From UHGV virus genome UHGV-0015805: 64,000 nt of DNA; one strand, written 5' to 3'. The notes beneath the pieces are model-generated. The model did no database searches. It was not told the DNA's origin and saw nothing but the letters and a program-made list of their open reading frames with translations. Positions 5,384-55,257 of the stretch are shown here, piece by piece. A program made the translations under genes and the position numbers. The DNA comes from a virus. Position 1 is the stretch's first letter. Each line of letters opens with the position of its first letter.

Positions 5384-5528
5384 ATTATGCATCTTGTCTA
5401 TGATGATTATAACGGCAACCTATATGGGCACATAGACTATATTGGTACTATCACGGCACATGGCTGTGGATGCAAGGCGATGCGCAACGGAATAAAAATA
5501 ATCGAAGTAATAATGGAGGATGATGACA

Positions 5529-6335
5529 ATGAGCAAACCGTATGAACTTGTTAATTTTTGCGAAATTGATAAATTCGCAACTAAGTCATATTGTGCGGTG
5601 CATGATGTAGACCCGAGCAAGAATCTTGGCGATATTACCAAGGTGGATGAGAACGAATTGCCTGAGTTTAATTGCATCTTTGGTGGTTCGCCTTGTCAAG
5701 ATTTTAGCGTTGCCGGTAAAGGTGCTGGCTCTATGTGGAAATGCCATGAATGTGGGCATGAGTACAACCCTATTACTATGCACTGGTCTAAGCGGCATAT
5801 CTGTCCTGAATGTGGTAGCGACCAGCTTGATAAGACGCGCTCATCTTTGCTTGTTGAATGGCTGCGTGTAATTCGAGCCAACAAGCCAAAGTGGGGTATT
5901 TATGAAAACGTGAAGAATATCACAGGCAAAAAGCATCGAGCCACATTCGACTTATTCGTTAAGGAACTCGAAGAATATGGCTACAATGTATATTGGAAAG
6001 TGCTTAATGCCAAAAATTATGGAGTCCCGCAAAATCGCAACCGCGTGTATGTTGTCATTGTACTGAAAGAGTTGGACAACGGCAAGTTTGAGTTCCCCAA
6101 GCCGTTCGATAATGGCGTTCGATTAAAAGATGTGCTTGAAGATGCGGTCGATGAAAAATATTATGTCGAAACCGATGCCTCCCAGGAGTTAATCGATGAA
6201 CTTGTCGAAAGTGGTAGACTCGACAAGGTAGCAAGCAATACGGTTCGTACAGGGGGGCGCAACGGCCCGATAGGCGACAGACACAATTGGGATGCTGTTG
6301 CAGTTAGGGCGAACGAGGCACATCAAAATCGATAG
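5529..6335 (+). CDS. DNA (cytosine-5) methyltransferase, part 1: motifs II-VIII plus N-terminal half of the target-recognition domain, with a zinc-ribbon insert; motif I absent here
   Basis: EIDKFA, GGSPCQDFSVAGKG (motif IV PCQ), ENVKN (VI) and QNRNRVYVV (VIII). CHECG...CPECG inserted between IV and VI. Ends at an in-frame TAG (6333-6335). Confidence 0.75.
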   Translation: MSKPYELVNFCEIDKFATKSYCAVHDVDPSKNLGDITKVDENELPEFNCIFGGSPCQDFSVAGKGAGSMWKCHECGHEYNPITMHWSKRHICPECGSDQLDKTRSSLLVEWLRVIRANKPKWGIYENVKNITGKKHRATFDLFVKELEEYGYNVYWKVLNAKNYGVPQNRNRVYVVIVLKELDNGKFEFPKPFDNGVRLKDVLEDAVDEKYYVETDASQELIDELVESGRLDKVASNTVRTGGRNGPIGDRHNWDAVAVRANEAHQNR

Positions 6336-6383
6336 ACTTTACGACATGTTGTTTCACAAAATCACGCAGGAGGATTAAAGAGA

Positions 6384-6704
6384 GTGGACATTGACACGCA
6401 AAACAAAAAATATCGCCTTAGACGGCTAACAGAAAAAGAATGCTGGCGTTTGATGGATTTTACAGATGAGCAGTTTGATAAAGCAAAGGATGCAGGACTG
6501 TCTGATACGCAGCTCTACAAGCAGGCTGGCAACAGCATTGTTGTTGGAGTGCTTGAGCAAATTATGGGCAATTTGTATGATGCTATGCCGTATTTGTTTG
6601 ATGATTTGAAAGTGGGCAGCTATTTTAGCGGCATTGGAGCGTTTGAAAGTGCGTTGGACAGAGTATATGAAAAGAAACGAAAAAAAAGGGGGGGGGGGGA
6701 CTAA
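6384..6704 (+). CDS. DNA (cytosine-5) methyltransferase, part 2: motifs IX-X followed by a C-terminal motif I (circular permutation)
   Basis: RRLTEKECWRLMDF (IX) and QAGNSIVVGVLEQI (X), then LKVGSYFSGIGAFESAL, which is a motif I FxGxG SAM loop. GTG start with AGGAGG RBS. Same reading frame as part 1. Confidence 0.7.
   Translation: MDIDTQNKKYRLRRLTEKECWRLMDFTDEQFDKAKDAGLSDTQLYKQAGNSIVVGVLEQIMGNLYDAMPYLFDDLKVGSYFSGIGAFESALDRVYEKKRKKRGGGD
6680..6699. repeat. A8 G12 homopolymer tract at the 3' end of the methyltransferase
   Basis: cgaaaaaaaagggggggggggg read directly at 6680-6699. Confidence 0.9.
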
Positions 6705-11128: not shown

Positions 11129-11563
11129 ATGAAAACCGAAGTAATGTTTTCCTCTGCCACAGATGAATGGGCAACGCCACAGAACTTGTTTGACGAATTA
11201 GACAAAGAGTTCCGCTTTGAACTTGATGTGTGTGCAAACGAAAGCAACCACAAGTGTGACAAGTATTACACCAAAGAGCAAGACGGGCTGCTAATGCCAT
11301 GGATTGCCGATGGTGCGATATGGTGTAATCCGCCTTATGGTAGGGAGATAGGCAATTGGGTAAACAGAGCGTGGCACGCATCCGCTGATGCAACGGTTGT
11401 AATGTTCTTACCCGCACGGACTGATACCAAGTGGTTTCATGACTATATCTACAAGAAACCAAATGTTGAAATTCGATTCATCAAAGGTCGCCTTAAATTT
11501 GGAGACAGTAAGAATTCTGCGCCGTTTCCGTCTATGATTGTGGTCTTTAGACCGTTTAACTAA
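11129..11563 (+). CDS. phage N6-adenine DNA methyltransferase (phage Dam family)
   Basis: DEWATPQNLF...LDVCA...WCNPPYG (NPPY catalytic motif), typical of the phage N-6-adenine-methyltransferase family. Confidence 0.75.
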   Translation: MKTEVMFSSATDEWATPQNLFDELDKEFRFELDVCANESNHKCDKYYTKEQDGLLMPWIADGAIWCNPPYGREIGNWVNRAWHASADATVVMFLPARTDTKWFHDYIYKKPNVEIRFIKGRLKFGDSKNSAPFPSMIVVFRPFN

Positions 11564-11582
11564 ATAAAGGGGTAAATGCGGT

Positions 11583-12221
11583 ATGAACAAATTTGTTGCT
11601 TGCGGGAAGCTAATAGAATTTGTCTGCCGCATTTATTCTACCCATATCAATGTAAAAACAGCACTTGATATAAACGGGCAAATAATCCAAACATCACAAA
11701 CAAGCAGTCGTAAGTGGAATGCAGATGAATGCCGGGCGGTGTTTGATATATTGCCTAACCTACATCCAAAAGTTGACGGCGTTGTTTATAATGTTGATAA
11801 ACCCTATTTTTTTTGCCGTAGAGCGCATGAAATCAGTAGGGTTATAGTTGGTGGCAATATCAACGAATGGCGCAATACAGTGTATTTTAATGCCAAATAC
11901 ATGCGTCTTATACAATCGTGCCAGCAACAAGACATGTTAGACATTCAAATTGACGGGCAGTGGGTGGATAATAACAGGCTACTAAATGTCTGTTATGATT
12001 CACCGAGAATATTTAATTTGCCAAAGCCCGCGGGAATAAGCGACAAAATATGTCGGTTATCTGTCGGCTATAATTGCGGATTTACAGTCAAGGGAAATAC
12101 TGTACTTGTGCATGACGGTGGAATATGGGTTAAGTCCGTTGAAGAAACTGACTTATGTTTCACCGAATCACAAGTTGATAATTATCTGCTTGAATATGAA
12201 ATTATTTCGGAAGAAAAATAA
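11583..12221 (+). CDS. hypothetical protein
   Basis: 212-aa ORF. Confidence 0.45.
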   Translation: MNKFVACGKLIEFVCRIYSTHINVKTALDINGQIIQTSQTSSRKWNADECRAVFDILPNLHPKVDGVVYNVDKPYFFCRRAHEISRVIVGGNINEWRNTVYFNAKYMRLIQSCQQQDMLDIQIDGQWVDNNRLLNVCYDSPRIFNLPKPAGISDKICRLSVGYNCGFTVKGNTVLVHDGGIWVKSVEETDLCFTESQVDNYLLEYEIISEEK

Positions 12222-12770: not shown

Positions 12771-13165
12771 AATACAAGGTATGCGGATTGTGCGAGAATA
12801 CTGACGGACTGTGCTATACGACTGACCCGCCTCAATATAAATGCCGGGTAACGGGGCAGTTTCATAAATTCGACGATGATTGCAATGTTGAAACAAAAAA
12901 GGACGCATTTGGATGCAATGCTAAATTGCTGACATGGCGCAGTATAAAGGACGATGTTCCGCCCACGGATGAAGAGGTGCTTGTTTGCTTTTATGATGAG
13001 CAGTCGGGCGAATACGGCTCTTGCGTGGTTGCATATTATACAAATGACGATGAAACGCTCGAGGAGTTTGAATGCCCCGTATGGTGGACCGCAGACCGCA
13101 ATTACATTGTAGACAATACAGACAAATGGGCGCACATTGAAAAGCCTGAGGTGCCTAATGTATGA
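12767..13165 (+). CDS. Cys-rich hypothetical protein
   Basis: ATGA overlap with the upstream gene. Confidence 0.4.
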   Translation: MKYKVCGLCENTDGLCYTTDPPQYKCRVTGQFHKFDDDCNVETKKDAFGCNAKLLTWRSIKDDVPPTDEEVLVCFYDEQSGEYGSCVVAYYTNDDETLEEFECPVWWTADRNYIVDNTDKWAHIEKPEVPNV

Positions 13166-14651
13166 TTTTACAGCGGCAAGGTTGTTGTTGGGATGCTTAA
13201 TTCAACGCCCAAACCTTTCTGTGAATGACAAATATCCGCTCAACAAAAAAGATTTTTCTGAACAATTATTCCATCTGCGGCTATATCAAGCAATTCACGC
13301 TCTTGCTCAAAGAGGAGCAAATAGCATATCTGCAATGGAATGTTATAATCTCTGTAGGGGCAATCAGGCAGTAAAAGAGTTGTTCGACTCAAACAATTTG
13401 TCGGCATTCATTGAGACAGTATCGAAGGTTGCAGATGTAAACAATTTTGCCCTGTATTATTCGACTGTCCGCAAATGCAGCTTAATCAATGCGTTCAAAG
13501 AGGCGGGATTCGACACGGCTAAGTTTGAGCAGGACATAAGCAAATACACAGAAGAAGAAATTTCAAGCCACTTTCTGTCACAAGCCGAAAAAATTTCAAG
13601 GGAGTTTAAGTGCGGGGCAGAAAGAGAAGAATATCTTGCTGGTGCAGATTTCATTGCAACAAAGAATAAATTCAAGGAATCGCCCGATTATGGACCATCT
13701 TTTCAGTCGCCGTATTTGAACAGCATATACAGGGGGCAAAGCGGGCTGATCTTAAGAGCGGGCAAAAGTGGCTTTGGCAAATCTGTACAGTCCATGGGCG
13801 ATGTGTGCAAATGCTGTTGCAAGGAATATTGGGACGATGAATTAAAACAATTTGTTCCTAATAAGTCCGCTGTTGGTCCAGCACTATTCATCAATACCGA
13901 AATGGACTTGCGGAAAGAGCTTGACCCACTTATTATTGCTTGGATAAGTGGCGTATCTCGAGGCAAAATCAAGGACGGATATTACTGCGGCGATGAAGAA
14001 GAACGAGTTGAACGAGCCGCGCAGATATTGCTTGATAGTAAGTTATACATTGTTGACGACCCATGCTTCACTACAACAAGCATTGTTTCGACCATAAAAG
14101 AATACAAGAACATTCACGGCATTAAGCTTGCCTGTTTTGACTATATACAGAATAATGGCTTTGTTGCAAGTGAAATTGCAGGCGAGACCAAAATTCCACA
14201 AAGAGAAGATATGGTGTTGCTTGCATTGACAGATAGGTTGAAGCAAGTACAGCGAATGTGTGACATTCCTGTTTTGACCTCTGTGCAAACAAATGGCATG
14301 GAGGACACAATGAAATATCCGACCGAGGCTTGCTTAGCCGGGTCTAAAGGGCAAATCCGCAAGACTGATGCAACAATGGTTATATTGCCACCTAAGCAGG
14401 ACGAACTTGATATATTTGATATGGCTAAGAGCAATCCTAATCTTGGAATTGACGAAAATGCGGTCTGTAATACAGTGACGCATATTCTCAAAGGCAGAAA
14501 TAGCAAGTTCCCGCGGCATGTTAAAATATATCAACAGGTCAATTATGGCACAGGCAGAACGCATGACTGGTTTGCTACAGACAAGGACGGTAATCAGGTC
14601 GACGGACTGCAGGGGCTGTTAATTGAATGTGATGGGAGGAAACAAATATGA
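13158..14651 (+). CDS. replicative DNA helicase, DnaB-like
   Basis: DnaB-N-like AARLLLGCLIQ; Walker A AGKSGFGKS; Walker B/H2 CFDYIQ; about 500 aa. Confidence 0.65.
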   Translation: MYDFTAARLLLGCLIQRPNLSVNDKYPLNKKDFSEQLFHLRLYQAIHALAQRGANSISAMECYNLCRGNQAVKELFDSNNLSAFIETVSKVADVNNFALYYSTVRKCSLINAFKEAGFDTAKFEQDISKYTEEEISSHFLSQAEKISREFKCGAEREEYLAGADFIATKNKFKESPDYGPSFQSPYLNSIYRGQSGLILRAGKSGFGKSVQSMGDVCKCCCKEYWDDELKQFVPNKSAVGPALFINTEMDLRKELDPLIIAWISGVSRGKIKDGYYCGDEEERVERAAQILLDSKLYIVDDPCFTTTSIVSTIKEYKNIHGIKLACFDYIQNNGFVASEIAGETKIPQREDMVLLALTDRLKQVQRMCDIPVLTSVQTNGMEDTMKYPTEACLAGSKGQIRKTDATMVILPPKQDELDIFDMAKSNPNLGIDENAVCNTVTHILKGRNSKFPRHVKIYQQVNYGTGRTHDWFATDKDGNQVDGLQGLLIECDGRKQI

Positions 14652-14816
14652 ACGATATGGTTCGTGCAACAATTCAGAGCTTGATTGATGAATTATATAT
14701 TAAATGGGGCTGCGACCCTGCATATTGTGTTGATAATACAATTGAAGGCAAGAAAGCAAAGATTGATGCCTATATTATTGAATGGCTAAAGGCGCATTTA
14801 GATGATGAGGTGTAAC
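14648..14816 (+). CDS. small hypothetical protein (56 aa)
   Basis: ATGA overlap with the helicase stop. Confidence 0.25.
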
Positions 14817-14875
14817 AATGCAATACATGGGCGGTAAGAGCCGCATATCTAAACAAATTTCGGAGGTTTTGAACA

Positions 14876-15587
14876 ATGCGTTATCTTGGTGGCAAGAGCA
14901 GAATTGCCAAACAGGTTGCAGAAGCGCTGAATTCTGCGCTGAGAGAGAGAGAGAGAGAGAGTATTTGTAAGCCTGTTTTGTGGCTCTTGCGCCGTTGAAT
15001 CAAAGGTGGACGCAGACATTAAAATTCTCAATGACAAGCATTCCTATCTCATTGCTATGTGGCAAAGGCTGCAACAAGGATGGCGACCGCCATATGCCGT
15101 AACAAAGGAAGAATATTATGCAATTAAAGCCAATATGAACGCCAATCCAGCATTAACCGGGTTTGTTGGCTTTGGATGTTCTTTCGGCGGAAAATGGTTC
15201 GGTGGTTATGCAAAGAGCGACAAGAAACGCAACTATTGTATGAATTCAAGAAATTCAGTGTTAAAAGATTTGCCGGGGTTGCAGGGCGCAACTTTTACTT
15301 GTCTCGACTATAAAGCCGTACCGATCCCAGATGGAGCGGTTGTATATTGTGACCCGCCTTATGCCAATACAACAGGATATAGTACGGGCGCTTTTAACAG
15401 CGACGAATTTTGGGAATACATGCGCCAATTATCTAAACGGTGCGATGTGTATATTTCCGAAGAACAAGCGCCCGGTGATTTTGAATGCATATGGGAACAA
15501 GAGTTAACGCGTTGGATTGATAGGAATAAATCTAATCAACCAAAGAAGATTGAAAAATTATTTAAGTATAAAGGAGGATGTATGTAA
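14876..15587 (+). CDS. D12-class N6-adenine DNA methyltransferase (Dam); reading frame interrupted inside a (GA)10 tract, so OFF as assembled
   Basis: Frame 2 gives N-terminal MRYLGGKSRIAKQVAEALNSAL, then (GA)10 encoding RERERE. Frame 0 continues VFVSLFCGSCAVE (FxGxG-type motif)...VYCDPPYANTTGY (DPPY). The two parts are out of frame by +1. Confidence 0.7.
14941..14960. repeat. (GA)10 dinucleotide simple-sequence repeat inside the Dam ORF
   Basis: gagagagagagagagagaga read directly. Confidence 0.95.
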
Positions 15588-15979
15588 TGAATATTAAAGA
15601 ATACAAAAGCGCGATAGAAACTCTTTATAAAGATATGTGCGAAAACGCAGACCTTGCAACAAAGCAATTTCGAGGACGGTCAAATTCCACATTAAACACT
15701 GAATGGGGACGCGGATATATGGACGCGCTCGAAACCGTGCTCAAAATTTTGGACGATGTTAAGGTTGTTAAACCGCGAACAAAGAAGCGCGAACCCATGG
15801 AAATTCAGCTTGATTATATTGAAGACCTCTATAATTTCGAGGAAATTTATTTTGGCGAAAAGCCCTCGCGCGAACGAAAGAAAGAGTTATTTGAGCAACA
15901 AATTCAGTGTGTAATTGACATCTGTAAAGAATATTACCGCCCCTATGATTTAGTAAGCATAGATGAATTAGATGATTGA
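15587..15979 (+). CDS. hypothetical protein
   Basis: GGAGG 9 nt upstream; start overlaps the Dam stop. Confidence 0.45.
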   Translation: MNIKEYKSAIETLYKDMCENADLATKQFRGRSNSTLNTEWGRGYMDALETVLKILDDVKVVKPRTKKREPMEIQLDYIEDLYNFEEIYFGEKPSRERKKELFEQQIQCVIDICKEYYRPYDLVSIDELDD

Positions 15980-17030
15980 CATTCAATCTATCAAATCGCG
16001 CCTCACAAGCGATGATATTATTGCTGTTATGGATGGCATGGGCATACCATTGGTATCGGCAAATAATCAATATCAATTGTATCCAAGTTGCTGCCACCAC
16101 ACAGATTGGCAAAATCATAAAGCAAAGCTCTATGCGTACAATGATACAAAAATGCTACATTGCTATTCGTGCGGCGAATCCTTTGATATATTTGGCATTG
16201 TTCAAAAAGTAAGGCAATGCAATTTTCAATCTTCTATTGCATATATATGTGAAATTCTGCATATAAATCCCACAGAAAATGTGCAGAAAGAAAATGTCGA
16301 TAATTGGCAGTCAGACCTTGGCAGATGGATAAAAGGCGGTGATGAATCTGAAACAGTTGAAATTCCAACATATGACAAAAGTGCAGTTGAGCTGTTTGAC
16401 CGATTATATCCGCAAGACTGGTTGCAATATGGAATTTCTGCGGACACAATGGACAAGTTCGGCATAGGTTGGTATGGGCGAAAGGCATGCATAACAATTC
16501 CTGTATGGCAAGGCGATAAGCTCGTCGGCATACGCGGAAGATATATGCGGACACAAGACACAGAAAGGGGTAAATATCGCCCTGTAAGCGATTTAAGCGG
16601 ACGTGTATATAAATACCCTACCAATGCTGTTCTGTACGGTTACAACGAAAATAAATGGCAAATACAGCGGTCTAAAACGGTGTGGCTTGTCGAAGCAGAA
16701 AAGACCGTCTTAAAATTTGACACATGGGGCATAAATAATGCCGTTGCGGTATTCGGCTCTAATATATCAAAACGGCAAATTCAAATGCTTATTGAGTTGG
16801 GTGTAAACAATGTAATACTTGGATTTGATTCGGACTACAAACAAATTGGCGATGATGATTACAAGCTATTCATTGAAAAGACTAAGCGGACAATTGCTAA
16901 GCTACGTCCATTCTTTTCGGTTGAGGTCTTTTATAATTGTTTGGGTTTTAATGCGCACAAGTTTTCCCCAACAGATTATACAAAAGAACAATTTGATGAA
17001 TTATGCAAACATATGGTAAAGGTGAATTAA
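15972..17030 (+). CDS. DNA primase (CHC2 zinc finger plus TOPRIM)
   Basis: CCHHTDWQNH...HCYSCGESFD (CHC2); WLVEAEKTVLKFD...GFDSD (TOPRIM E and DxD). Confidence 0.75.
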   Translation: MIDIQSIKSRLTSDDIIAVMDGMGIPLVSANNQYQLYPSCCHHTDWQNHKAKLYAYNDTKMLHCYSCGESFDIFGIVQKVRQCNFQSSIAYICEILHINPTENVQKENVDNWQSDLGRWIKGGDESETVEIPTYDKSAVELFDRLYPQDWLQYGISADTMDKFGIGWYGRKACITIPVWQGDKLVGIRGRYMRTQDTERGKYRPVSDLSGRVYKYPTNAVLYGYNENKWQIQRSKTVWLVEAEKTVLKFDTWGINNAVAVFGSNISKRQIQMLIELGVNNVILGFDSDYKQIGDDDYKLFIEKTKRTIAKLRPFFSVEVFYNCLGFNAHKFSPTDYTKEQFDELCKHMVKVN

Positions 17031-17031
17031 A

Positions 17032-19218
17032 ATGATTGATGTGAAATGTATTATAACAAGAAAGGTATATGATAGCGGTGAGGGCTATCGGGTCTATTCA
17101 TGCCGACCTGTCGAAGCAGAAAAGACCGATGAGCTTGAGCTGAATAAATACGGTGACTTTACACTTTCTATCAATCAGACCACATTTGCCATTGGAAACA
17201 CAATTCATGTTTGTGTTGAAAAGGACGAGCTTTCAAAATATCCCGGCTCATATAAGTTTGTATCCTATTACAACCAAATAGGCGCGGACATTTCGCCAGA
17301 AACAGCTAAACAAATAATGTGCAACTTTATGACAGAATCTCAGGCAATCAGCATTATTGATGCATATCCCGACTTTATTCGATTGATTCTCGATGATAAA
17401 ACCGATGAAATTGATATAAAAAAAATCTATGGCGTCGGCAAACATCGGTTGGCCCTTTATCAAAGAAAAATCAAAGAACATTGTAAGGAAATTGCATATG
17501 CCCCGATTTGTTATAGGTGGAACATTAAAGATATAAGGCTTGTTTCGGGCAGATTTGAAAGCCCACAAGAATTTGAGTCTGCGGTCAATTCTGCCCCATA
17601 TGCCGCATTGATTGATAAATGTGAGTGCGGCTTCACAGAAGCGGACAAAACAATCCTCAGAAACAATAGAGAATTGCGGTCGTCTGAAGAACGGTGCCTA
17701 TATGCTTGTTTGCATGAATTAAAACAAAATGAATTAAACGGCAGTACAATTATGTCAACCGCTGAACTTGCGCACATTATTTTTGATAAATATAATGCTT
17801 GTTACGATAAGTTGGTTGATGTTGTTAAGCGGTCGAGTAAGATTCATTATAATGATGCAAGCAAGTCCGTTGCCCGCGAATCAACATATCAGAGCGAACG
17901 GGCTGTTGCACAGATATTGCTTGAAAAAATAAAAAAACCGTCAAAACTCTATATTGAACTCGATAAATACAGAGAAATTGACGGGATTACATTGACAGAT
18001 GAGCAGTTAAGTGCGGTGGATATGGTCGCAAATAACAGCGTATGCATGCTGAATGGTTATAGCGGCTCTGGTAAATCGACAAGCACAAAGTCAATTGTTC
18101 GCATGCTTGAGGACTGTAACAAGACATATACATTGCTCGCCCCCACGGGGATTGCGTCTCGTGTGTTGTCCAAAGCAACTGGGCGTAAAGCCCAAACAAT
18201 ACATATGTTCCTTGCGACAAATGAAGAAGCGGGAGATTATGTATTGATAGACGAGTGCTCGATGCTACCGATTGATTTAGTCGCTACATTACTGCAATCC
18301 CCACAATTGAACAAAGACACCAACTTGATATTTGTCTGTGATAATGCGCAGTTATTATCAATTTCTTGCGGCAATTTTGTGCAGGATGTTATTGATAGTG
18401 GATTAATACCTCGTGTGTCGTTGTCTAAAATTTTTAGATACAAGACAAGCGGTATTATTACAGAAGTAACAGATGTACGAAATGGCGAACACAGCAATCT
18501 AACTAACGCATATGCGGACTATTCATTTGTCCAAATTGCGGACGAGCCAATGCAGCAAGTTTCTGCGGCTTATGATAAATTCTTGTCTATGGGGTATACA
18601 AAGGACGATATATTGCTTTTATGCCCCTACAACAAGTCTAAAATTGGCTCTACGGCGATTAACGCATATATGCAGGACAAGTATAATCCCTATGAAGAAA
18701 CGGGCTTCAAAGCGCAAAAAAATGGCATTAGAATGCATGACCGCGTAATCAACAAGAAAAACAATTATCATGTAATTGCCTGTTCGTGGTCTGAGGACGA
18801 GCAAGAATATGTGGACGGCGGGCAAATGTTTGTTGCCAACGGTGACATAGGAGAGGTAGTACAGTATCAAAACAACGACAACGAACAGTATTTAATTATT
18901 CGATTTGGCGACCGATATGCAAGATTTGAGCCGTCAGATATATTAAATCTGCAATTGGCGTACTGTATATCCTGTCATTCATCGCAGGGCTGTCAGGCAA
19001 AAGCGGTCATTTGTATATTTGACCGCATGCATCAAGCCCTTGTAACGCGCAATTTGCTCTATGTGGCGATGTCCCGGGCGCAAGAACAATTGTGTGTAAT
19101 CGGTGATTATAACACTATTGTTTGTGGGATTTCAAAGCAAGAAAATCTTGAAAGAAAAACTTTTTTGAAAAACATGTTGACAAATCCGCAAGAATATGAT
19201 ATTATATTGTCAATATGA
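17032..19218 (+). CDS. RecD-like (SF1) DNA helicase
   Basis: Walker A NGYSGSGKST, Walker B VLIDECSML, C-terminal CISCHSSQG (cf. TIHKSQG). Confidence 0.7.
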   Translation: MIDVKCIITRKVYDSGEGYRVYSCRPVEAEKTDELELNKYGDFTLSINQTTFAIGNTIHVCVEKDELSKYPGSYKFVSYYNQIGADISPETAKQIMCNFMTESQAISIIDAYPDFIRLILDDKTDEIDIKKIYGVGKHRLALYQRKIKEHCKEIAYAPICYRWNIKDIRLVSGRFESPQEFESAVNSAPYAALIDKCECGFTEADKTILRNNRELRSSEERCLYACLHELKQNELNGSTIMSTAELAHIIFDKYNACYDKLVDVVKRSSKIHYNDASKSVARESTYQSERAVAQILLEKIKKPSKLYIELDKYREIDGITLTDEQLSAVDMVANNSVCMLNGYSGSGKSTSTKSIVRMLEDCNKTYTLLAPTGIASRVLSKATGRKAQTIHMFLATNEEAGDYVLIDECSMLPIDLVATLLQSPQLNKDTNLIFVCDNAQLLSISCGNFVQDVIDSGLIPRVSLSKIFRYKTSGIITEVTDVRNGEHSNLTNAYADYSFVQIADEPMQQVSAAYDKFLSMGYTKDDILLLCPYNKSKIGSTAINAYMQDKYNPYEETGFKAQKNGIRMHDRVINKKNNYHVIACSWSEDEQEYVDGGQMFVANGDIGEVVQYQNNDNEQYLIIRFGDRYARFEPSDILNLQLAYCISCHSSQGCQAKAVICIFDRMHQALVTRNLLYVAMSRAQEQLCVIGDYNTIVCGISKQENLERKTFLKNMLTNPQEYDIILSI
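19177..19205 (+). promoter_or_regulatory. promoter-like element (TTGACA-17-TATTAT) in the 3' end of the helicase gene
   Basis: ttgacaaatccgcaagaatatgatattat. Confidence 0.4.
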
Positions 19219-20291: not shown

Positions 20292-20331
20292 GGGGAACAT
20301 TTAATAGCTTAATTGCTATCTTGTGTTCCCC
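20292..20331. terminator. bidirectional hairpin between convergent early (+) and late (-) transcription units
   Basis: ggggaaca ...24 nt... tgttcccc, flanked by A-run and T-rich sequence. Confidence 0.5.
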
Positions 20332-53595: not shown

Positions 53596-55257
53596 TTAAT
53601 AATTTTCTTTGATTCTGTCCCATACATTCATGGTAGACATATCTTTCTTTTGAATTTCAATCGGTTTAGAGAAAGCGAAGATTTTATCTGCGTCTTTCTT
53701 TGCCGCCTTTTTGAACGCATTAAAGCACTGTGCCTTAACCTTATTACCAAAAGCATCAATCTCGTCCTTGCCACAAGCAAGTCCCTCGGCACGCAGTTCC
53801 TGATATTTGTCGGCATCAAGATAATCCTTGACTTCATCCAAAATATCTTCAACGCGCTTAGCAATCTCTTTTTCTTCAATCGCCGCCTTGTATGCTTTCA
53901 GTTCGTCAAGCTCTTTTCTCAACTCGTCGATTTCGGCATCTTTCTGCATAATAATTGCGTCTTTTTCGTCGGGCTCATCTTCAGACTTGCCCTCTTCACC
54001 CATGAGATGTTTGAACTCTTCAGGGCAAGAGAACCGCTTAATATCATCGGTTTCGACAAACTCAATGTCAACTTTGACCATTTCATCGTCCATGAACAGC
54101 CCATCTTCCGTATAGCTAAAATTGATACGGAATCTGTCGCCGTCATCATTTCTGACAATCACAAACTTTTTATTATCCTGTTCAAAAATGCCGTCAATGT
54201 ACCAACGCCAATCATAATTTCTTGCACGAAGCTCATCATTGATTTTCGTCCACATAAGATTGAGGTCAACAGCCGCAAATGCAACTTCTTTGCTCATTTT
54301 TTCATCGTCCTCCTTTCCCTCTTCGTTCAAATCTAATTCATCATAGATTTCTTTTAATTTATTCAAAACCTCCTGCTCGTCATTCTGTTTAGCATAAGCC
54401 AAAGCAGAAGCAAGAGCACGAGTTGAATAACGCCATTCGCCGTCGAACAGCCCCATTACGGGGTAGCCAAGCTTAGTCACCTCTCTGTCCTCCCAGCCTT
54501 CCTCAAGATTGAGACAGACCTTTGGTGCGAGAGATTTATAATTCTTCTCTTTAATCAAATCTTGCTTGGCCTTGTTTCCATCCCACTCACCAGTATAAAC
54601 GGCGTCTTTAGAAGTGTTGATGGGATGAGATACATATTTCTTTTCAGCCATAGATTGTTTCCTCGTTTCAACAAATTTGGTTAGATTAGATACGGCATTT
54701 GTAGCACTGGCAAAATAAGCATCAGCCTCTTCTGCTGTGAACCGCACCATCTGTATATCTGCATCAGGACATGAACCGTTCACCTTTTTCCCAAGACAAG
54801 TTAGTCCAAAGATATCAAATGCTATAACCTCATGTTCGTCATCATCTTCTGTGTCAACTGTCATTTCCACAGAACTATTACGCAAATTGTCAAATTCAAA
54901 AATATCGTTAAAATCTTTTCCATATTTTTTACTGACAACCGAATAAGCATATGCCTTGGTCACACCTGCATCTTCAACAAACTCAATGTCTTGTTCTATA
55001 GGAAAATAGCCATATATAATTTCATCGTATTCATGACTCATTGCATCGCCAAATCGCACCTTAGCCACAAGGAAATTGCCAAGAATGGTGCCAGCATATT
55101 CCCGCAATACATCATCGTTAATGTTCAGCTCGTGTGCGTTTGGTTTGGTGCTAAGAAAGCAACACTTATACACGGCGAATTTATGCTCTGGATAGGCATC
55201 TGTCCAATGAGGAATTTCTACGGCGTCCTCCATTTGAAACCTTACATTTTTTCTCAA
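53596..55257 (-). CDS. head morphogenesis protein (protease/scaffold-like, C-terminal coiled coil)
   Basis: 553 aa; acidic coiled-coil C-terminal half; position after the portal. Confidence 0.35.
   Translation of the reverse strand: MRKNVRFQMEDAVEIPHWTDAYPEHKFAVYKCCFLSTKPNAHELNINDDVLREYAGTILGNFLVAKVRFGDAMSHEYDEIIYGYFPIEQDIEFVEDAGVTKAYAYSVVSKKYGKDFNDIFEFDNLRNSSVEMTVDTEDDDEHEVIAFDIFGLTCLGKKVNGSCPDADIQMVRFTAEEADAYFASATNAVSNLTKFVETRKQSMAEKKYVSHPINTSKDAVYTGEWDGNKAKQDLIKEKNYKSLAPKVCLNLEEGWEDREVTKLGYPVMGLFDGEWRYSTRALASALAYAKQNDEQEVLNKLKEIYDELDLNEEGKEDDEKMSKEVAFAAVDLNLMWTKINDELRARNYDWRWYIDGIFEQDNKKFVIVRNDDGDRFRINFSYTEDGLFMDDEMVKVDIEFVETDDIKRFSCPEEFKHLMGEEGKSEDEPDEKDAIIMQKDAEIDELRKELDELKAYKAAIEEKEIAKRVEDILDEVKDYLDADKYQELRAEGLACGKDEIDAFGNKVKAQCFNAFKKAAKKDADKIFAFSKPIEIQKKDMSTMNVWDRIKENY

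Follow-up and report, generated by a model that had tools for sequence, protein, structure and literature searches.

Why would a phage carry a methyltransferase gene whose starts and catalytic region lie in different reading frames? We addressed this question for a locus in UHGV virus genome UHGV-0015805, of which a stretch of 64,000 nt was analysed as a whole (the window; coordinates refer to it unless a relative is named, and frames are given as coordinate mod 3). A D12-class N6-adenine DNA methyltransferase is encoded there in three frames: two related N-terminal modules, each with a start of its own, precede a (GA)10 tract, and the catalytic part follows the tract in the third frame. From the window and its relatives, we consider it probable that the tract is a contingency switch with three states (short, long and off), operated by slipped-strand changes in a simple sequence repeat (SSR) within an orphan phage methyltransferase. 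Below, we set out the evidence for this reading, together with the alternatives of an assembly error, recoding, a decaying gene and a simpler switch with one real start.

Repeat number and reading frame of the methyltransferase gene

The tract at 14941-14961 reads GAGAGAGAGAGAGAGAGAGAG, i.e. (GA)10 followed by G, and is an uninterrupted SSR within a reading frame, with a unit length that is not divisible by three. A repeat scan of the 64 kb window returned this tract alone as a dinucleotide repeat of at least 5 units, and it is therefore not a chance feature. Two open reading frames (ORFs) begin 5′ of the tract, at ATG codons that are 58 nt apart and in different frames. ORF1 opens at ATG 14818 (mod 3 = 1; MQYMGGKSRISKQISEVLNN...) and ends after 50 aa at TAA 14968-14970, and ORF2 opens at ATG 14876 (mod 3 = 2; MRYLGGKSRIAKQVAEALNSALRERERES...) and ends after 40 aa at TGA 14996-14998. 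The catalytic part runs in frame 0 from 14961 (VFVSLFCGSCAVE...), with DPPY at 15351-15362 and a TAA stop at 15585-15587. Each start is preceded by a Shine–Dalgarno sequence (Table 1); the GGAGG of ORF2 is kept in all close relatives, and a 55-aa ORF upstream of ORF1 ends with a stop at 14813-14815, just before ATG 14818. An initial annotation, made from the letters alone, had proposed this arrangement of tandem N-terminal segments at 14818 (frame 1) and 14876 (frame 2), a (GA)10 repeat and a catalytic part in frame 0, and direct reading of the sequence confirmed all of it. The two modules, here called Q-type (module 1) and R-type (module 2), are identical at 36/58 nt of their 58-nt DNA copies, which indicates that the duplication is old rather than recent.

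We then rebuilt the gene in silico with other repeat numbers (n). For the window allele, n = 10, neither start is fused to the catalytic part and the gene is OFF, and the same holds for all lengths with n mod 3 = 1 (7, 10, 13). With n mod 3 = 2 (8, 11, 14), ORF2 is fused and yields a product of 235-239 aa. With n mod 3 = 0 (9, 12, 15), ORF1 is fused and yields 255-259 aa; within this longer product, the DNA of module 2 is read in the ORF1 frame and forms a linker of 22 aa. Rebuilding thus showed that the earlier claim of a gene that is OFF as assembled, and the frame arithmetic behind it, were correct. In the OFF state, gene callers report an ORF of 193 aa, which lacks motif I and is therefore presumably inactive.

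The proposed assignment to the D12 class was upheld by Pfam PF02086 (MethyltransfD12), which scored 62.3 bits for the short fusion and 55.0 bits for the long fusion against a cutoff of 22 bits. The motifs come in D12 order, with YMGGK or YLGGK at the N-termini, then LFCGSC and then DPPY. The last G of the FxGxG motif is C in the window enzyme, and the LFCGSC residues are invariant across the aligned homologues. The closest solved structures were those of T4 Dam (E = 1.5e-6), with an alignment from residue 29 onward that opens directly after the tract (...RVFVSLFCG versus NRFVDLFCGG). The tract is therefore located at the junction of the N-terminal YxGGK helix with strand 1/motif I, and the segment between this helix and motif I varies in length among in-frame homologues.

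Tract length among close relatives

A protein search returned 3031 homologues; most of the close ones are 231 aa long, have one start and lack the repeat (...SAINKDTPFVSLFCG). A subset carries (RE)n at the site of the tract and occurs in three forms. Short proteins begin MRY..., long proteins begin MQYMGGK... and continue through the out-of-frame reading of module 2 into (RE)n, and truncated calls begin at an internal Met or Val. We counted 15 long, 19 short and 20 truncated distinct proteins, although some of the truncated ones, on short contigs, may be contig-end artefacts. Judged by the members of 90% clusters, four protein lineages each hold long, short and truncated/OFF-type forms. Since both ORF1-fused and ORF2-fused proteins were called by gene finders on real contigs, the idea of a repeat-gated, phase-variable design with two alternative starts, raised in the initial annotation, gained support. 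A catalytic domain that is identical or nearly identical to that of the window occurs in proteins of every form: P0121 (OFF), P0124 (n=8), P0123 (n=11), P0126 (n=14) and P0134 (n=15).

In the DNA of the close relatives, both modules and a GA tract are present without exception, and the tract has 6-16 units over ~20 contigs. Outside the tract, the window (n=10, OFF) shows 0/750 nt differences from locus L001 (n=8, short), 1/750 from L101 (n=15, long) and 6/750 from L102/L103 (n=11, short). With n = 8, 10 and 15 separated by 0-1 differences in 750 nt, all three states are found on essentially one allele. The expectation that homologous phages would carry other repeat lengths was thus borne out in all three frame states, and by alleles that are identical outside the tract and differ in n. 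Judged by these comparisons, the tract changes much faster than the rest of the gene gains substitutions.

The relatives came from several sources. DNA-pattern scans of IMG/VR and JGI gave only 3 and 6 loci, respectively, and the majority of relatives come from Logan/ENA assemblies. Against GenBank phages, blastn with the locus gave only a 68% partial match, to a Bacillus phage methylase, and no close cultured relative. The methylase genes of L001 and L101, with their 0-1 differences from the window in 750 nt, lie between flanks that are only ~93% identical to those of the window, which suggests recent exchange or a sweep among related phages. Some lineages have interrupted tracts (L037, L028; P0125, P0148), such as GAGAGAGAGGGAGAGAG and (GA)11AAGAAAGAGAGAG at the DNA level and ...KRESERER... 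and ...RRERER... in the protein. By analogy with 'locked' bacterial contingency loci, such interruptions would make the present (ON) state more stable.

Errors are somewhat common in dinucleotide repeats, and where a population is mixed the consensus can be arbitrary; (GA)10 might on that account be a miscount, introduced by sequencing or assembly, of a true length that is in frame. This is extremely unlikely. The identical OFF product P0121 is present on 8 public contigs from NCBI, Logan and ENA, and the gene is also OFF in other independent assemblies, at lengths of 7 and 12+GG; one of these is a contig with a 340x coverage label (L038, n=7). Moreover, miscounting of a single value could not produce all lengths from 6 to 16.

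Repeat and double start in distant homologues

Distant homologues were scanned with one genome per species. Genes that are 50-60% identical were found in metagenome-assembled genomes and isolates of Clostridia (among them Ruminococcus sp. YE282, Flintibacter muris, Acutalibacter caecimuris and Oscillospiraceae). As in the window, there is a pair of modules, at a spacing of 55 or 58 nt, and directly before FVSLFCGS comes a repeat, either G6-G11 or (GA)6 to (GA)17. The initial annotation had foreseen neither this wide occurrence nor the poly-G form. The module offset of 55 or 58 nt is kept in 34 loci. Among 24 Clostridia genome loci, 13 were OFF, 4 long and 2 short, 3 had both modules in frame and 1 was ambiguous; the remaining locus has a single start and no repeat, and is ON.

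A second poly-G tract lies between the modules in 9 loci on GTDB genome contigs (L039, L041, L042, L047, L053, L054, L055, L059 and L069), giving the order module 1, poly-G, module 2, poly-G, catalytic domain. This two-tract design permits both modules to be in frame, as in L039, L047 and L059, and the products of L039 and L047 are 264 aa long. Separately, L029 combines the two repeat types, with G9 after its R-type module and (GA)11 after its Q-type module.

Homologues without the repeat (L104-L107, L050, L002 and L006) have a single start. In a more distant single-start clade there is an in-frame proto-repeat, GAGAGAGAAAGT, which has grown to (GA)9 in L003/L004 (two IMG/VR contigs that are identical across the region), where the gene is OFF. 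The fixed position of the repeat, the change in its chemistry and the co-occurrence of repeat and double start together form the pattern that would be expected of a selected contingency locus.

Poly-G tracts also bear on recoding, in which transcriptional slippage or ribosomal frameshifting on the repeat would restore the frame at any tract length. Long homopolymers, such as the G9-G11 of these relatives, can support slippage by RNA polymerase in some systems. Transcriptional slippage is mainly known for A/T runs, however, and a (GA)n tract is not known as a ribosomal slippery site; no frameshift-stimulating signal was seen either. Recoding would also leave unexplained why there are two out-of-frame modules and why the frame of the long product is kept open (see below), and we give it almost no credence.

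Selection on the catalytic part and the N-terminal modules

If the methylase were dispensable, the gene might be a decaying pseudogene, or the repeat a neutral microsatellite that drifts in length. The window allele is OFF, as are the 13/24 loci in bacterial genome assemblies noted above, and the phage has other methylases (a C5 enzyme at 5520-6704 and a PF05869 'Dam' at 11129-11563), such that redundancy may exist. However, the catalytic ORF is uninterrupted in 18/18 complete OFF loci, distant ones included, with 204-224 codons and DPPY; none of these alleles has acquired a second lesion in ~600 nt. Decay or drift also fits poorly with the strong purifying selection on both modules described next, with an architecture that was kept while the repeat changed between GA and poly-G, and with the joint occurrence of repeat and double start. 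We consider this explanation very unlikely.

Selection on the modules was assessed from the ratio of non-synonymous to synonymous polymorphism (pN/pS). Across 11 close-clade haplotypes, pN/pS was 0.10 for module 1 in its own frame, with third positions making up 11/18 variable sites, and 0.24 for module 2 in its own (ORF2) frame. The same module 2 DNA read in the ORF1 frame, i.e. as the linker of the long isoform, gave 1.33 and is unconstrained. In the wider set of 27-28 dual-module haplotypes, the values were 0.24 (module 1) and 0.34 (module 2). The ORF1 frame is stop-free through module 2 in 24/24 distinct haplotypes, and synonymous recoding of module 2 leaves this frame open with a probability of 0.11-0.57 (mean 0.31). 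These statistics all point the same way, namely that the first module is probably translated, that its sequence matters and that read-through to the repeat is preserved; such read-through is a requirement of a functional long isoform.

A simple ON/OFF switch with one real start would need only the ORF2 (short) fusion to work. Long fusions would then be inactive by-products, and module 1 would be the relic of an old duplication, or at most a leader ORF that affects ORF2 translation via the embedded Shine–Dalgarno sequence. Several observations favour such a switch and weigh against three states. At the amino-acid level, the long isoform shows no conservation of its linker (pN/pS 1.33), which leaves the activity of this isoform unproven. 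Long is also the rarest state in samples not chosen by protein type (0/9 DNA-pattern loci and 4/24 genome loci), and the embedded GGAGG could account in part for why module 1 is conserved at its 3′ end. AlphaFold2 models from shallow alignments had a mean predicted local distance difference test score (pLDDT) of 55 (long) and 51 (short) and are unusable, such that no usable structural model backs the docking of module 1. The pN/pS values and open-frame counts come from related sequences, which are phylogenetically non-independent. On the same side of the balance, and regarding the rate of switching, the closest genome pairs are equal in n (L102/L103, 99.0% identity; L030/L033, 98.6%), and switching is therefore not fast enough to give a different n in every consensus; all of the tract variation seen lies between assemblies.

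Four findings speak for a working first start. Purifying selection acts on the module 1 protein over its whole length and not just at the Shine–Dalgarno sequence (pN/pS 0.10 and 0.24 in the two haplotype sets), and the full YxGGK motif is kept in module 1 across ~50% protein divergence. A leader ORF needs no open frame through module 2, yet this frame is open in every haplotype (24/24 versus ~0.31 expected). Finally, the two-tract variants can have both modules in frame. On balance, we judge a single real start to be unlikely and favour the switch with three states. From the variation between assemblies, we infer that switching would also proceed within populations at a high rate; likewise, we infer that both isoforms are active and that they confer a selective benefit, which may include escape from restriction.

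A proposed three-state switch

For the favoured three-state switch, we propose that slipped-strand mispairing during phage replication alters n, and that the phase of n picks which N-terminal module, if any, is joined to the catalytic domain. A single start combined with a repeat at the loop between helix and motif I would normally leave one productive frame in three. An out-of-frame duplicate of the module, with a ribosome-binding site for each copy, would make two of the three phases productive. At n = 3k+2, the downstream R-type module would be joined to give a short isoform of ~235-239 aa, and at n = 3k the upstream Q-type module would be joined via the unconstrained 22-aa linker to give a long isoform of ~252-259 aa. 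At n = 3k+1, as in the window (n=10), neither module would be joined and the gene would be OFF. Each step of +/-1 unit would therefore move the locus between short, long and off.

Slippage would keep yielding progeny with methylated or unmethylated DNA, and possibly with two enzyme variants. The most likely benefit would be bet-hedging between hosts that cut unmethylated sites and hosts that cut methylated sites, and in lysogens or carrier states the switch could give variable methylation of the host genome. If confirmed, the locus would offer a concrete and readily testable case of phage hedging between two kinds of host restriction, methylation-sensitive and methylation-dependent. For annotation, the warning is that a phage methylase recorded as 'frameshifted' may be a switch and need not be an error or a pseudogene.

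Q-type and R-type modules

The two modules differ in a recurrent manner at residue 2. One module has Q (M-Q-Y-x-G-G-K) and the other has R (M-R-Y-x-G-G-K) in 27/28 distinct dual-module haplotypes, and their order over the 28 haplotypes is Q-R in 24, R-Q in 3 and R-R in 1. Modules are slightly more alike within each type than between types. When the motifs are aligned as [KRQ]-[WY]-x-G-G-K, the Q/R residue falls at the position of K9 in E. coli Dam. This lysine, together with Y138, reads the first GATC base pair, and the contact varies within the Dam family (PMC4417163). One could imagine that the two modules are non-redundant and that the repeat toggles between two methylases of differing specificity or stringency and none, as a three-state epigenetic switch. 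We regard this extension as doubtful; the Q/R pattern could equally well have been inherited from a single old duplication. Were it true, then together with the poly-G tracts in the C5 methylase gene of relatives (see below), it would give the phages of gut Clostridia a combinatorially variable methylome and, in prophage or carrier states, would represent a mobile phasevarion for commensal Firmicutes.

Genomic context and other modification genes

The features of the methylase locus are collected in Table 1. The gene is found inside a tightly packed operon, and counts of promoters and terminators around it are not above shuffle expectation.

Table 1. Features of the D12 methyltransferase locus in the window
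Feature	Position	Strand	Remarks
Shine–Dalgarno GAGGTG, ORF1	14807..14812	+	5 nt before ATG 14818; sequence reading
N-terminal module 1 (Q-type) MQYMGGKSRISKQISEVLNN, ORF1 start, frame 1, D12 YxGGK motif	14818..14877	+	
Shine–Dalgarno GGAGG, ORF2	14862..14866	+	9 nt before ATG 14876; within module 1 codons S-E-V
N-terminal module 2 (R-type) MRYLGGKSRIAKQVAEALNSAL, ORF2 start, frame 2	14876..14941	+	
TGA in the catalytic frame, right before the tract; shuts frame 0 upstream	14940..14942	+	
(GA)10G SSR, the putative switch; encodes (RE)n in fused products	14941..14961	+	
Catalytic part, D12-class N6-adenine DNA methyltransferase, frame 0	14961..15587	+	Pfam PF02086; T4 Dam structural alignment
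Motif I LFCGSC	14973-14990	+	within the catalytic part
193-aa ORF, GTG start, as reported by gene callers in the OFF state	15006..15587	+	

The methylase gene had been placed in a phage replication module, and its neighbours agree with this. It lies between genes for a DnaB-like helicase (13137-14651) and a DnaG-like primase (15972-17030), the latter followed by a RecD-like helicase (17032-19218). Elsewhere, the window encodes a Pol III alpha-type polymerase, a tape-measure protein and a portal protein. An ORF at 53596-55257 (553 aa, no PHROGs function) gave only tblastn matches of 35-38%, to Enterocloster phages, and related contigs are 50-97 kb long and come from gut or faecal metagenomes. 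The element is a tailed phage of gut Clostridia that carries the methylase within its replication module. No res or hsd partner adjoins the methylase in the window or its relatives, and the gene is an orphan D12 methyltransferase.

Two further observations concern the layout of the region. Near 20300, the GC skew and the coding strand flip: up to ~20.3 kb, the + strand carries the replication and modification genes, and past this point structural genes are found on the - strand. In three relatives (L101 at 11300-12022, L102/L103 at 11234-11956), a 240-aa NUMOD4/HNH_3 homing-endonuclease gene lies between the small ORF that follows the methylase and the primase gene; the window is without this gene, and its 133-aa ORF abuts the primase directly (15979/15972).

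The phage has other putative modification genes. A C5 cytosine methylase (PF00145) at 5520-6704 is split by a TAG at 6333-6335 into two pieces that share a frame (5520-6335 and 6384-6704). This gene contains a G6 run (6252-6257) and an A8G12 tract (6680-6699). Relative L103 has G10 at the site that is homologous to the G6 run at 6252, and its gene also has G14 and G9. In the window, the A8G12 tract is located at the gene's 3′ end, and the next ATG (6708) follows after 9 nt. The C5 methylase of the window may be a second repeat-controlled methylase. Stop-codon reassignment was considered for its in-frame TAG and set aside, as long ORFs in the standard code cover the window. A putative adenine methylase of another family (PF05869 'Dam', 144 aa, 112.6 bits) is encoded at 11129-11563, 3 kb upstream of the D12 gene, and relatives have further modification genes, namely Mom, an N6_N4 methylase and a Lar-like gene.

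Several palindromes of 4 bp are strongly depleted across the window relative to Markov expectation: GATC was observed 16 times versus 183 expected, CTAG 1 versus 59, GGCC 16 versus 169, CCGG 32 versus 152 and ACGT 28 versus 133. This depletion suggests heavy restriction pressure, and the extra modification genes together with palindrome avoidance are consistent with strong pressure of this kind. The depletion of GATC does not identify the target of the D12 enzyme.

Comparison with known systems

Phase-variable methylases are known almost only from the Type I and Type III systems of bacterial pathogens. Switching by SSRs is well established for mod genes of Type III and hsd genes of Type I; Type II cases are few (PMC13076061). 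The mod phasevarions of Haemophilus and Neisseria resemble the phage locus in having an SSR in the 5′ part of an N6-adenine methylase gene, the length of which sets the frame. H. influenzae mod has a distal and a proximal ATG, in two frames, upstream of its repeat, and the proximal ATG, from which expression is low or undetectable, contributes a leader only (PMC1557822). The phage locus shares with it the two initiation codons in different frames 5′ of the tract and a tract length that is polymorphic among isolates. The mod systems differ in that they are subunits of restriction–modification (R–M) systems of Type III in bacterial pathogens and carry tetra- or pentanucleotide repeats. The phage gene, in contrast, encodes an orphan D12 enzyme (Dam-like, alpha-order) in which the repeat follows a conserved element of the catalytic fold, and this element is itself duplicated with one copy per frame. 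The initial annotation had likened the locus to phasevarions; the likeness stands as far as a repeat-gated methylase is concerned and fails in that the gene is not the mod or hsd of a Type III or Type I R–M system. The locus should not be filed as a phasevarion, a term that requires a demonstrated regulon and has historically been used in a Type I/III context.

The translational switches of the lic1/lic2A type in H. influenzae reportedly have several ATGs in different frames, as Weiser et al. are said to have described in 1989. These also place multiple out-of-frame starts 5′ of an intragenic SSR and have three expression states. They differ in being bacterial lipopolysaccharide biosynthesis genes, and their alternative N-termini do not consist of functional motifs in duplicate.

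T4 Dam and E. coli Dam (PDB 1yf3, 1q0s, 2g1p) belong to the same D12 family and share [YW]xGGK, an FxGxG-like motif I and DPPY with the window enzyme. Their identity to it is only distant, and they are without an SSR or a duplicated N-terminus. Bibersteinia trehalosi group G has a prophage orphan methyltransferase with a pentanucleotide SSR 43 bp upstream of the ATG, the link of which to activity is unclear (PMC4996451). This gene is likewise a prophage-borne orphan, and SSR length and activity differ between strains; however, its SSR would act on the promoter or leader, and it has neither an intragenic frame switch nor dual modules. A literature search turned up no account of a D12 methylase from a phage or prophage that combines an SSR inside the gene with dual starts or with N-terminal modules duplicated out of frame.

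Contingency loci of phages have come into view more recently. Poly-G tracts occur in receptor-binding proteins of Campylobacter Fletchervirus (Sorensen 2021), and homopolymers in agt and rIIA of T2/T4 (PMC12633550). Bordetella phage BPP-1 has a poly-G tract in a methylase gene that was never studied (cited in PMC12633550). The 2025 preprint states that contingency loci had not previously been ascribed to phages and lists earlier poly-G tracts that were never so designated (PMC12633550). The locus described here is like these in that an SSR in a phage gene would lead to heterogeneous progeny. With T2 agt, it shares a DNA-modification enzyme and, presumably, a link to evasion of host defence, and with BPP-1, an SSR in a phage methylase gene. 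The earlier phage loci are homopolymers with a single start and two states, whereas this one has a dinucleotide repeat (poly-G in relatives), a duplicated module and three predicted states, and occurs in a large family of gut Clostridia phages and prophages. It thus appears to be a repeat-switched, phage-borne, Dam-like orphan methylase that selection has kept over this wide family despite the change in repeat type. We did not find its design solution described elsewhere: a conserved N-terminal fold element duplicated out of frame would provide an enzyme in two of three repeat phases.

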